From Escherichia coli (GTDB lineage Bacteria; Pseudomonadota; Gammaproteobacteria; Enterobacterales; Enterobacteriaceae): a stretch of 64,000 bases of DNA. Shown here piece after piece: positions 29,172-44,358 of this stretch. The DNA is taken from the NCBI RefSeq assembly GCF_003790525.1, contig NZ_CP033635.1; one strand, written 5' to 3'. The notes beneath the pieces were generated by a model, which worked only from the letters and a program-made list of their open reading frames with translations, searched no databases and was not told where the DNA came from. Numbering within the stretch: position 1 is the first letter of the stretch; each line of letters opens with the position of its first letter. Both the position numbers and the translations under genes were made by a program.

Positions 29172-29190
29172 AGTTATACAAAGTATAACT
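29172..29190. promoter_or_regulatory. Candidate chpSB operator palindrome
   Basis: agttatac-aaa-gtataact perfect inverted repeat just upstream of chpS. Confidence 0.55.
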
Positions 29191-39802: not shown

Positions 39803-41746
39803 ATGATTAAGTTTAGCGCAACGCTCCTGGCCACGCTGATTGCCGCCAGTGTGAATGCAGCGACGGTCGATCTGCGTATCATGGAAACCACTGATCTGCA
39901 TAGCAACATGATGGATTTCGATTATTACAAAGACACCGCCACGGAAAAATTCGGACTGGTACGTACGGCAAGCCTGATTAATGATGCCCGCAATGAAGTG
40001 AAAAACAGCGTACTGGTCGATAACGGCGATTTGATTCAGGGGAGTCCGCTGGCAGATTACATGTCGGCGAAAGGATTAAAAGCAGGTGATATTCACCCGG
40101 TCTATAAGGCATTAAATACGCTGGACTATACCGTCGGCACGCTTGGCAACCATGAGTTTAACTACGGTCTGGATTACCTGAAAAATGCGCTGGCGGGAGC
40201 GAAATTCCCTTATGTAAATGCCAACGTCATTGACGCCAGAACCAAACAGCCAATGTTTACACCGTATTTAATTAAAGACACCGAAGTGGTCGATAAAGAC
40301 GGAAAAAAACAGACGCTGAAGATTGGCTATATTGGCGTCGTACCGCCGCAAATCATGGGCTGGGATAAAGCTAATTTATCCGGGAAAGTGACGGTGAATG
40401 ATATTACCGAAACCGTGCGCAAATACGTGCCTGAAATGCGCGAGAAAGGTGCCGATGTCGTTGTCGTTCTGGCGCATTCCGGGCTGTCTGCCGATCCGTA
40501 TAAAGTGATGGCGGAAAACTCAGTTTATTACCTCAGTGAAATTCCGGGCGTTAACGCCATTATGTTTGGCCATGCTCACGCCGTTTTCCCGGGTAAAGAT
40601 TTTGCTGATATCGAAGGAGCTGATATCGCGAAAGGCACGCTGAATGGTGTTCCGGCGGTAATGCCAGGCATGTGGGGCGATCATCTTGGTGTGGTCGACT
40701 TACAACTCAGTAATGACAGCGGTAAATGGCAGGTAACACAGGCGAAAGCGGAAGCACGACCGATTTACGACATCGCTAATAAAAAATCCCTCGCGGCGGA
40801 AGACAGCAAGCTGGTAGAAACACTCAAAGCCGATCACGATGCCACACGCCAGTTCGTCAGCAAGCCAATCGGTAAATCTGCCGACAATATGTATAGCTAT
40901 CTGGCACTGGTGCAGGACGATCCGACCGTGCAGGTGGTGAACAACGCGCAAAAAGCGTATGTCGAGCATTACATTCAGGGCGATCCGGATCTGGCAAAAC
41001 TGCCAGTGCTTTCAGCTGCCGCACCGTTTAAAGTTGGTGGTCGCAAAAATGACCCGGCAAGCTATGTGGAGGTGGAAAAAGGTCAGCTGACTTTCCGTAA
41101 TGCCGCCGATCTTTATCTCTACCCCAATACGCTGATTGTGGTGAAAGCCAGCGGTAAAGAGGTGAAAGAGTGGCTGGAATGCTCTGCCGGACAGTTTAAC
41201 CAGATTGATCCTAACAGCACGAAACCACAGTCACTCATTAACTGGGATGGTTTCCGCACTTATAACTTTGATGTGATTGATGGTGTGAATTATCAGATTG
41301 ATGTTACCCAGCCCGCCCGTTATGACGGCGAGTGCCAGATGATTAATGCCAATGCGGAAAGGATTAAGAACCTGACCTTTAACGGCAAGCCGATTGATCC
41401 GAACGCCATGTTCCTCGTTGCCACCAATAACTATCGCGCTTACGGCGGCAAATTTGCCGGTACGGGCGACAGCCATATCGCTTTTGCTTCACCGGATGAG
41501 AACCGCTCGGTGCTGGCAGCGTGGATTGCTGATGAGTCGAAACGTGCGGGGGAAATTCACCCGGCGGCAGATAACAACTGGCGTTTAGCACCGATAGCCG
41601 GCGATAAGAAACTGGATATCCGTTTCGAAACCTCTCCGTCAGATAAAGCCGCAGCGTTTATTAAAGAAAAAGGGCAGTATCCGATGAATAAAGTCGCGAC
41701 CGATGATATCGGGTTTGCAATTTATCAGGTGGATCTGAGTAAGTAA
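39803..41746 (+). CDS. cpdB: 2',3'-cyclic-nucleotide 2'-phosphodiesterase / 3'-nucleotidase CpdB, 647 aa
   Basis: ORF 39794..41746; start at [35 protein letters not shown]...; calcineurin-like plus 5'-nucleotidase C-terminal domains. Confidence 0.95.
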
Positions 41747-41778
41747 TACACTTCTTTTTCGGCCTGCAAATCATCAAC

Positions 41779-41872
41779 CGCATCCGGCATTTATTGGCGG
41801 ATGCGATGCTGACGCATCTTATCCGCCCTACAAGCCATGAACCTTAGTCCGGATAAGCGCAGCGCATCCGGC
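41779..41872. repeat. REP/BIME between cpdB and ytfH
   Basis: catccggcatttattggcggatgcg ... tccggataagcgcagcgcatccggca. Confidence 0.8.
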
Positions 41873-41874
41873 AG

Positions 41875-42255
41875 TTATGCCGCACGTTCATCCCGCACCG
41901 CTAACACCTCGGGCAAATTCAACTCAATCCAGTCCGCCAGTGCAGCAACCTTTTCGCTCACCTGCTCGCCCAGCGGCGTGAGGCTATATTCCACATGCGG
42001 CGGCACCACCGGATACGCGATACGGTTAAGAAAACCATCCTGTTCTAATGCCTGTAACGACTGCGCAAGCATCTTTTCACTCACCCCGCCCATTTTGCGC
42101 CGCAGGTCGCTAAAGCGATGAGTACCTTCGCGTAGCGCCACCAGAATCAACACCCCCCAACGGCTGGTGACGTGTTTCAACACCTCGCGCGACGGGCACT
42201 GTTCGGCGAAGAGGTTACCCTCTTTCAGTTGTTGCGACAGGCTAACCTGACTCAT
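41875..42255 (-). CDS. ytfH: HxlR-family transcriptional regulator YtfH, 126 aa
   Basis: ORF 41875..42345; ATG at 42253-42255 gives MSQVSLSQQLKEGNLFAEQCPSREVLKHVTSRWGVLILVAL... Confidence 0.9.
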   Translation of the reverse strand: MSQVSLSQQLKEGNLFAEQCPSREVLKHVTSRWGVLILVALREGTHRFSDLRRKMGGVSEKMLAQSLQALEQDGFLNRIAYPVVPPHVEYSLTPLGEQVSEKVAALADWIELNLPEVLAVRDERAA

Positions 42256-42278
42256 TTCATACTTACCTTTTTGTACGT

Positions 42279-42295
42279 ACTTACTAAAAGTAAGT
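42279..42295. promoter_or_regulatory. Candidate YtfH operator in the ytfH-qorB divergent region
   Basis: acttact-aaa-agtaagt perfect 7-3-7 inverted repeat, adjacent to a gtacgtac palindrome. Confidence 0.5.
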
Positions 42296-42343
42296 TTAGG
42301 TGGTAGCGTATTTAAACACAAGACAAACCGATGGAGGCTTCCC

Positions 42344-43204
42344 ATGATCGCAATTACCGGCGCAACCGGCCAACTTGGTCACTATGTTATTGAATCCTTG
42401 ATGAAAACGGTTCCTGCCAGCCAAATAGTGGCTATCGTTCGTAATCCGGCAAAAGCCCAGGCACTGACAGCACAAGGCATTACCGTGCGTCAGGCTGATT
42501 ACGGCGATGAAGCCGCACTGACATCTGCGCTTCAGGGAGTGGAAAAACTACTGCTGATCTCTTCCAGCGAAGTGGGTCAACGTGCCCCGCAGCATCGTAA
42601 TGTTATTAATGCCGCAAAGGCGGCTGGTGTGAAATTTATCGCTTATACCAGTCTGCTTCACGCGGATAAATCTCCGCTCGGCCTCGCCGATGAGCACATT
42701 GAGACGGAGAAAATGTTGGCTGATTCTGGCATCGTTTACACCCTGCTGCGCAACGGCTGGTACAGCGAAAACTACCTCGCCAGCGCCCCGGCAGCACTGA
42801 AACACGGCGTATTTATCGGTGCGGCGGGCGATGGCAAAATCGCCTCAGCAACGCGGGCAGATTATGCGGCAGCTGCGGCACGCGTGATTAGCGAAGCAGG
42901 TCACGAAGGCAAGGTTTATGAACTGGCAGGTGATAGCGCCTGGACACTGACACAGTTAGCGGCGGAACTCACCAAACAGAGCGGCAAACAGGTTACCTAT
43001 CAAAATCTGAGTGAAGCTGATTTCGCCGCGGCACTGAAAAGCGTCGGACTGCCTGACGGACTGGCGGATATGCTGGCGGATTCTGACGTTGGCGCATCGA
43101 AAGGTGGTCTGTTTGATAACAGCAAAACGCTTAGCAAATTGATTGGCCGCCCAACGACAACGTTAGCCGAAAGCGTAAGCCATCTTTTTAATGTTAATAA
43201 CTAG
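42344..43204 (+). CDS. qorB: NAD(P)H:quinone oxidoreductase QorB (YtfG), NmrA-like, 286 aa
   Basis: ORF MIAITGATGQLGHYVIESLMKTVPASQIVAIVRNPAKAQALTAQGITVRQADY... Confidence 0.93.
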   Translation: MIAITGATGQLGHYVIESLMKTVPASQIVAIVRNPAKAQALTAQGITVRQADYGDEAALTSALQGVEKLLLISSSEVGQRAPQHRNVINAAKAAGVKFIAYTSLLHADKSPLGLADEHIETEKMLADSGIVYTLLRNGWYSENYLASAPAALKHGVFIGAAGDGKIASATRADYAAAAARVISEAGHEGKVYELAGDSAWTLTQLAAELTKQSGKQVTYQNLSEADFAAALKSVGLPDGLADMLADSDVGASKGGLFDNSKTLSKLIGRPTTTLAESVSHLFNVNN

Positions 43205-44335: not shown

Positions 44336-44358
44336 AAGATGCATTTAAAATGCATCTT
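44336..44358. promoter_or_regulatory. NsrR-type operator upstream of ytfE
   Basis: aagatgcattt-a-aaatgcatctt perfect palindrome 27 bp upstream of the ytfE start. Confidence 0.85.

Follow-up and report, generated by a model that had tools for sequence, protein, structure and literature searches.

The question raised by the short DNA segment between ytfH and qorB in Escherichia coli is whether the protein encoded on one side of it controls the gene on the other and, if so, through which sequence. In the window (the whole stretch of DNA analyzed here, 64,000 nucleotides of contig NZ_CP033635.1), the two genes are divergently oriented and separated by a spacer of 88 bp (42256–42343); the ytfH–qorB locus was found in 5,416 of 5,426 complete E. 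coli genomes, and in strain SMS-3-5, the 1.5 kb surrounding the palindrome described below match the window with 100% identity. A first-pass annotation had described a perfect 7-3-7 palindrome between these genes and regarded it as a candidate operator through which YtfH could control qorB. The sequence of this palindrome, its coordinates, and the gene order were all confirmed; positions 42279–42295 read ACTTACTAAAAGTAAGT, a perfect inverted repeat with 7-nt arms and a 3-nt spacer. The features concerned are as follows:

41875–42255, minus strand: ytfH (RefSeq name), encoding an HxlR-family protein of 126 aa (PF01638, E = 2.5e-32)
42344–43204, plus strand: qorB (ytfG; RefSeq name), encoding an NmrA-like NAD(P)H:quinone oxidoreductase of 286 aa; proposed to be the gene regulated by YtfH
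42279–42295, no strand: palindrome O2, ACTTACT-AAA-AGTAAGT, with the conserved core ACTTAC-N5-GTWAGY; from its sequence, the proposed primary binding site of a YtfH dimer

Perfect inverted repeats (arms of at least 7 nt, spacers of 0–8 nt) are common in this DNA. The window contains 78 of them, compared with ∼40 in Markov-1 simulations, and ∼0.055 are expected per 88-bp spacer. Thus, the symmetry of O2 taken alone is marginally non-random, and its significance comes from conservation. When up to two mismatches were allowed, the exact O2 pattern occurred once in the window (0.07 occurrences expected), and the pattern ACTWAC-N5-GTWAG was absent elsewhere in the window and in 447 kb of related loci. 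A literature search for the motif string matched no paper, and ACTTAC-N5-GTAAGT is not known to us as the motif of any E. coli regulator. The palindrome count also returned another perfect 7-3-7 palindrome, A/T-rich, at 29173–29189 (GTTATACAAAGTATAAC), and ATGCATTTAAAATGCAT, which is the inner part of a perfect 11-1-11 palindrome at 44336–44358 (AAGATGCATTT-A-AAATGCATCTT), located ∼27 bp before the start codon of ytfE (44385). The latter palindrome corresponds to the known NsrR operator of the ytfE promoter. Downstream of ytfH, between its end and that of the convergent cpdB gene (41760–41875), GC-rich imperfect palindromes of the REP type are found (GCATCCGGCA, GCGGATGCG, and CCGGATAAGCGCAGCGCATCCGGCA).

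In 77 of 80 species-level Enterobacteriaceae loci (one genome per species, scanned using the YtfH alignment; protein identity between 82 and 99%), qorB is divergent from ytfH at the same distance, that is, with a spacer of ∼88 bp. The alignment of 77 distinct Enterobacteriaceae spacers revealed a conserved block that extends beyond O2. A repeat finder located a further copy of the half-site, TACTTAC, at 42260–42266, which is 18 bp to the left of the copy in O2 and had been missed in the first-pass annotation. The following features were thus added:

42256–42296, no strand: 41-bp phylogenetic footprint comprising O1 and O2, spanning ∼−60 to −20 relative to the predicted start of qorB
42260–42279, no strand: O1, an imperfect palindrome, TACTTAC-CTTTTT-GTACGTA (TACTTAC-N6-GTACGTA), with 6 of 7 pairs in E. 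coli
42273–42280, no strand: GTACGTAC, overlapping O2 by 2 nt, at the junction of GTnnGT of O1 and ACTTAC of O2

The mean major-allele frequency of the 41-bp block was 0.961, whereas it ranged between 0.57 and 0.74 in the rest of the spacer and was 0.72 (qorB) and 0.62 (ytfH) at the third positions of the first codons. Conservation was at least 94% in 15 of the 17 columns of O2 and in 16 of the 19 columns of O1. The clearly variable columns of the block are 42264 (T in 69 spacers, A in 8), 42275 (A in 52, G in 25), 42292 (A in 28, T in 48, G in 1), and 42295 (T in 60, C in 17). Positions 42264 and 42292 represent the same half-site position (position 4, ACT-W-AC) in different copies, occupied by T or A, which is as expected for equivalent recognition units. 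The perfect symmetry of O2 is lineage-specific, which corrects the picture given in the first-pass annotation: A at 42292, which completes the right arm, is present in 28 of the 77 spacers (Escherichia, Pseudocitrobacter, Citrobacter, Salmonella, Superficieibacter, and Intestinirhabdus are among the genera), and most genera have ACTTACT-AAA-AGTTAGT, an imperfect O2 with 6 of 7 pairs. Across 80 distinct sequences, the arms of O2 were complementary in register in 85% of cells, compared with 10–35% when the partner was slid by 1–3 bases; for O1, the corresponding values were 76% and at most 31%.

Within E. coli, the 41-mer was identical in 3,885 of 5,406 genomes. The K-12 spacer differs from that of the window at three positions, all of them outside the palindrome, and its 41-bp block is identical. 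In the three variant E. coli genomes that were read, the block differs at 42275 (A/G), at 42276 (C/T), and, in strain FCI56, at 42257 (T to C); O2 was intact in all three. Three matches to the ytfH–qorB 41-mer were located on plasmids, and at least one E. coli genome carries two copies.

The first-pass annotation had also drawn attention to an adjacent GTACGTAC palindrome. It is indeed present at 42273–42280 but is not conserved as a palindrome, given the A/G variation at 42275. GTGCGTAC is found in its place in 25 of the 77 species and in 931 E. coli genomes, and GTATGT and GTGTGT variants occurred among the E. coli genomes read. As its two central positions are the polymorphic ones, both between species and within E. 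coli, GTACGTAC was rejected as a second operator palindrome. The conserved element in this part of the spacer is O1, which, judged from its sequence, is a possible second, weaker site for YtfH. Its left half overlaps the ribosome-binding region of ytfH, and the spacing of its half-sites differs by 1 bp from that of O2. The functional operator probably consists of two tandem sites and is ∼40 bp long.

How such an operator would affect qorB depends on where the promoter is. A consensus scan of positions 41700–42500 found no strong sigma-70 promoter; the qorB promoter was therefore assigned from conservation. The signals concerned are as follows:

42301–42309, plus strand: extended −10 element of qorB, TGgTAGCGT (TGnTAnnnT), predicted from conservation
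42281–42286, plus strand: predicted −35 position of qorB, TTACTA (3 of 6 matches, 17-bp spacer), within the left arm of O2, deduced from the geometry
42315–42317, plus strand: predicted start region of qorB, a conserved AAC (99–100%) located 6–7 nt after the −10 element; +1 would be A42316
42333–42337, plus strand: Shine-Dalgarno sequence of qorB, GGAGG, with a conserved AAGGAG block 6–7 nt before the ATG
42266–42269, minus strand: probable Shine-Dalgarno sequence of ytfH, AAGG, within the left half of O1

In the 77 spacers, the conserved element is GGTGnTAGYKT at 42299–42309, in which T42301, G42302, T42304, A42305, and T42309 never change whereas the intervening bases do; TG-n-TA-nnn-T is thus an invariant motif, located downstream of O2 at a distance of 8 nt. 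If the −10 hexamer occupies 42304–42309 and +1 is near 42316, O2 would be situated at ∼−37 to −21 and O1 at −56 to −37. Provided that this −10 assignment is correct, the location of O2 would be that of a repressor site. In a SELEX study using the RNA polymerase sigma-70 holoenzyme, the qorB/ytfH spacer was listed among the constitutive promoter regions. The qorB promoter given in the RpoD SELEX paper (TCGACA-15-TACATT) did not occur in the 6 kb surrounding the K-12 locus, also when one mismatch was allowed, and was not considered further. On the minus strand, no TAnnnT conserved in all genera was found for ytfH; speculative candidates for its −10 element are TACTTT in E. coli (42292 to 42287) and, in most other genera, TAACTT (42293 to 42288). 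In E. coli, a mini-ORF of two codons (ATG AAA TGA, 42253–42260) overlaps the ytfH start codon. Most other genera contain an extra T (CATTTTCAT), which shifts the upstream ATG into frame and results in an annotated N-terminus of MKMT...; the true start of YtfH may therefore differ between genera.

To cover greater distances, homologues of YtfH with 50–69% identity were taken from cluster representatives, and the encoding contigs of twelve of them were used. Those with usable contig context were mostly divergent from an NmrA-family gene. Homologues with 55–69% identity keep the layout (A)CTTACC-N5-GTnnGT-ACTTAC-N5-G(T)n(A)G(Y), followed, after 8–9 nt, by TAnnnT; at this fixed distance from O2, the latter reads TATGAT, TAGTAT, TATGCT, TATTCT, TATAGT, or TAGCTT. 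The spacers between the half-sites vary freely (TTTTT, AAAAA, or TTCAG in one case; TAAAA, TTCTC, or GCATG in the other), including a change from TTTTT to AAAAA in locus L082. That the half-sites are kept while the spacers change, even in strand sense, is more in keeping with a repeat bound by a protein than with a continuous signal. Compensatory changes, affecting both arms, were observed in L084 (ACTTTC-TTCTC-GAAAGC, with CTTTC/GAAAG) and in the Lelliottia locus L062 (ACTAACT-AAA-AGTTAGT). In the most distant homologues, the right half of O2 is degenerate (GTTGGC, GTCAGC, GGCATG) and both direct ACTTAC copies remain, which makes a poorer fit to a simple symmetric dimer site. Two homologues, P0137 (L090) and P0147 (L095), are encoded in other gene contexts where the motif is absent; they are probably paralogues and uninformative with respect to O2.

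Three loci of the Lelliottia group have no qorB. O2 is still present upstream of ytfH in all three; two of them show decay of O1 and the left part of the block. The persistence of O2 after loss of qorB suggests that the site travels with the regulator. Where qorB is deleted (L062, L076, and L077, at ∼2380–2500), ytfH faces a cluster of thiol:disulfide interchange/thioredoxin-like genes. The deletion junction is common to L062 and L076; in L077, a hairpin follows the retained −10 element and leader of qorB, and this suggests that qorB was deleted there independently or in steps.

The degenerate partner half-sites raise the tentative possibility that YtfH does not recognize a simple dimer site but a composite operator of ∼40 bp, in which two pseudo-palindromes, ACTTAC-N6-GTnnGT and ACTTAC-N5-GTWAGY, abut and differ in spacing. 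Its invariant anchors may then be the direct ACTTAC repeats, which lie 18 bp from each other, with their partner half-sites degenerate. If this were true, either two YtfH dimers would bind asymmetrically and cooperatively, each on a different face of the helix, or the two sites would have separate tasks: O2 would serve to autoregulate ytfH and to occlude the qorB promoter, and only qorB would require O1. The latter is hinted at by the decayed O1 of lineages without qorB. To our knowledge, no member of the HxlR family has been described with either arrangement. The simpler reading, with O2 as the core of the operator, is followed below.

By its sequence, YtfH itself is a candidate thiol sensor of the HxlR type. 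It matches the HxlR-type winged helix-turn-helix model PF01638 with 111 bits (cut-off, 20.8), and structure-database matches include PDB 1YYV, its Salmonella orthologue, and the relatives HxlR, HypR, and YodB. Cys20 is the sole cysteine of YtfH and is part of a CPSR motif that is invariant in homologues down to 51% identity; from its position in the sequence, Cys20 would be equivalent to Cys6 of YodB, Cys14 of HypR, and Cys17 of QorR. The recognition-helix region, GGVSEKMLAQ, is conserved in parallel with the site. The locus thus combines a regulator with a conserved N-terminal cysteine, a divergent adjacent oxidoreductase gene, and, as a sequence feature, an inverted repeat in the shared promoter region.

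A change in qorB expression upon loss of YtfH, which the first-pass annotation had called for, has in effect been described: in a preprint of December 2025, CRISPRi of ytfH raised qorB expression ∼24-fold (log2FC 4.6; bioRxiv 10.64898/2025.12.20.695731, supplementary note 6). There, qorB was the only differentially expressed gene upon ytfH knockdown and changed only in that perturbation. This pooled single-cell CRISPRi study is a single, unreplicated preprint in which the effect of ytfH was seen in only ∼4% of cells (bioRxiv 10.64898/2025.12.20.695731), and dCas9 positioned in the divergent promoter region could relieve promoter competition rather than remove YtfH.

The candidate operator thus gains support from conservation of the block, the layout preserved in distant homologues, the co-varying arms, the predicted overlap with the −35/spacer region of the qorB promoter, and the reported knockdown. 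It is likely, in our estimation, that O2 is the operator core of YtfH and that YtfH is a one-Cys winged-helix repressor of the HxlR/DUF24 type encoded next door. In a YtfH dimer, one recognition helix would contact ACTTAC and the other GTWAGT, half-sites with centers 11 bp apart. When bound to O2, the dimer would block access of RNA polymerase to the extended −10 promoter and thereby keep qorB off. A second dimer would probably occupy O1 and bring the 5′ end of ytfH into the protected region. The block reaches the ribosome-binding region of ytfH and O2 is kept where qorB has been lost, both of which make it likely that YtfH also represses its own gene. If YtfH works like QorR, YodB, and QsrR, it would leave the DNA once quinones or other thiol-reactive compounds have alkylated or oxidized Cys20, and the quinone reductase would be induced. 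YtfH appears to have a single local target. Overexpressed in multicopy, ytfH was also reported to suppress the poor growth of a dnaK dnaJ tig mutant (PMC7461557), an effect that the model of a local repressor does not explain.

Several known systems resemble this proposed pair. The closest is QorR-qor2 of Corynebacterium glutamicum, where a one-Cys HxlR/DUF24 regulator is likewise encoded divergently from a quinone oxidoreductase gene. QorR is described as repressing its target by attaching to the shared intergenic region and as being released by thiol oxidants through its single N-terminal cysteine. C. glutamicum is the host of QorR, whereas that of YtfH is a Gram-negative enterobacterium, and the likeness lies in the protein family, the divergent gene arrangement, and the single cysteine. 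Qor2 was reportedly described by Ehira and co-workers in 2009 as a homologue of E. coli YtfG, that is, QorB. Some annotators label YtfH orthologues of Citrobacter as "QorR."

YodB of Bacillus subtilis and its homologue QsrR of Staphylococcus aureus belong to the same family as YtfH (PDB 5HS7 was matched at E = 2e-9), sense via an N-terminal cysteine, and repress genes for quinone and azo reductases; YodB leaves the DNA upon alkylation by quinones or upon disulfide formation. Its operator is an A/T-rich inverted repeat whose half-sites, of the TACT/AGTA type, are contacted in two successive major grooves. The YodB box reads TACT-N7-AGTA, whereas the symmetric register of O2 (42282–42292) contains TACT-N3-AGTA inside ACTTAC-N5-GTAAGT. 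A TACT-N7-AGTA arrangement is found only off-center (42278–42292), so that O2 is not a YodB box despite the similar base content. YodB furthermore has additional cysteines and several unlinked targets, unlike YtfH with its one cysteine and apparently single local target. HypR (YybR) of B. subtilis, another member of the family (PDB 4A5M/4A5N), binds a 7-2-7 inverted repeat (GTATCAAAATTGATAC) at its own promoter, and its DNase I footprint of ∼43 bp, which far exceeds the repeat in length, parallels the 41-bp block. It is, however, a two-Cys activator with a site at −53 to −95 upstream of the promoter, whereas O2 would overlap the −35/spacer region and the knockdown indicates repression. A looser analogue is RrpA-mdaB of Campylobacter jejuni, in which a redox regulator of the MarR type is encoded divergently to a quinone reductase gene, and the inverted repeats that it protects lie in the intergenic region between the two. 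Those repeats are 6 nt long and 19–24 nt apart, and RrpA is a positive regulator. Membership of YtfH in RrpA or RrpB (NCBIfam NF047367 and NF047364) was rejected, the scores being far below the curated cut-offs (65.5 versus 175 bits and 47.8 versus 185 bits).

Could the conservation of the 41-bp block have a cause other than binding of YtfH? It might be a mosaic made up of the core expression signals of a tightly packed pair of divergent genes (the −35/UP region of qorB, and the promoter, 5′ UTR, and ribosome-binding site of ytfH), its palindromic look being incidental. The left arm of O2 does coincide with the expected −35 position, the Shine-Dalgarno sequence of ytfH lies inside the left half of O1, and such overlaps could explain part of the conservation; moreover, both promoters must overlap within 88 bp, the stretch between O1 and O2 is T-rich and resembles an UP element, and O1 has decayed in two loci that lost qorB. 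Still, −35/UP elements are rarely 96% conserved over 41 bp across genera and show no compensation from arm to arm, whereas in the block, it is the half-sites that are conserved and the A/T-rich stretches between them that change sequence and strand sense (TTTTT to AAAAA). O2 also remains when qorB is gone, and ACTTAC is a poor match to TTGACA (3 of 6). A mosaic of this kind is therefore considered unlikely. That O2 is the operator of another factor, for example, a redox- or electrophile-responsive regulator, and that YtfH acts on qorB indirectly, is very unlikely. The link between YtfH and the site is indeed a sequence-based one, and the CRISPRi effect does not prove direct action; but the motif occurs only beside homologues of ytfH, whose proteins are down to 55% identical, it persists after loss of qorB, and the recognition helix, as noted above, is conserved in parallel with it.

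An RNA hairpin, formed in the 5′ UTR of ytfH or in a long qorB leader and acting on stability, termination, or translation, was rejected on the basis of its folding energy and of the majority variant, and its probability is considered very small indeed. A stem of 7 bp can be drawn on the ytfH-sense strand in E. coli (−5.4 kcal/mol), and the compensatory changes would fit an RNA stem as well. The fold of the E. coli sequence (−5.4 to −6.1 kcal/mol) is, however, not distinct from that of shuffled sequences (z = −0.9 to −1.65), and the majority variant reaches only −1.3 kcal/mol in the ytfH sense (z = +0.44). In addition, no run of T follows the stem, and the site is upstream of the predicted qorB start. 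The remaining alternative, a functionless palindrome that arose by chance, has in its favor that perfect inverted repeats with 7-nt arms are common. It is effectively refuted by the near-invariance of the site in the spacers of 77 species and in 5,406 E. coli genomes and by the layout kept in distant homologues, which leaves it a negligible probability.

O2 as the operator core of YtfH thus remains the preferred reading, and from the sequence evidence, YtfH and O2 very probably constitute an ordinary local repressor–operator pair of the thiol-sensing QorR/YodB kind. The pair changes no general principle. For YtfH, a little-studied regulator of E. coli K-12 that had been linked to qorB by knockdown only, it provides a first defined, albeit predicted, DNA target. 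What is new is a testable predicted operator (core and extended), a predicted qorB promoter, and natural variants of a compensatory-like nature. If confirmed, the compact combination of an electrophile-responsive repressor and its promoter would be usable as a sensor, and YtfH-QorB would be the enterobacterial counterpart of the quinone-detoxification switches QorR-Qor2 and YodB-AzoR of Gram-positive bacteria.
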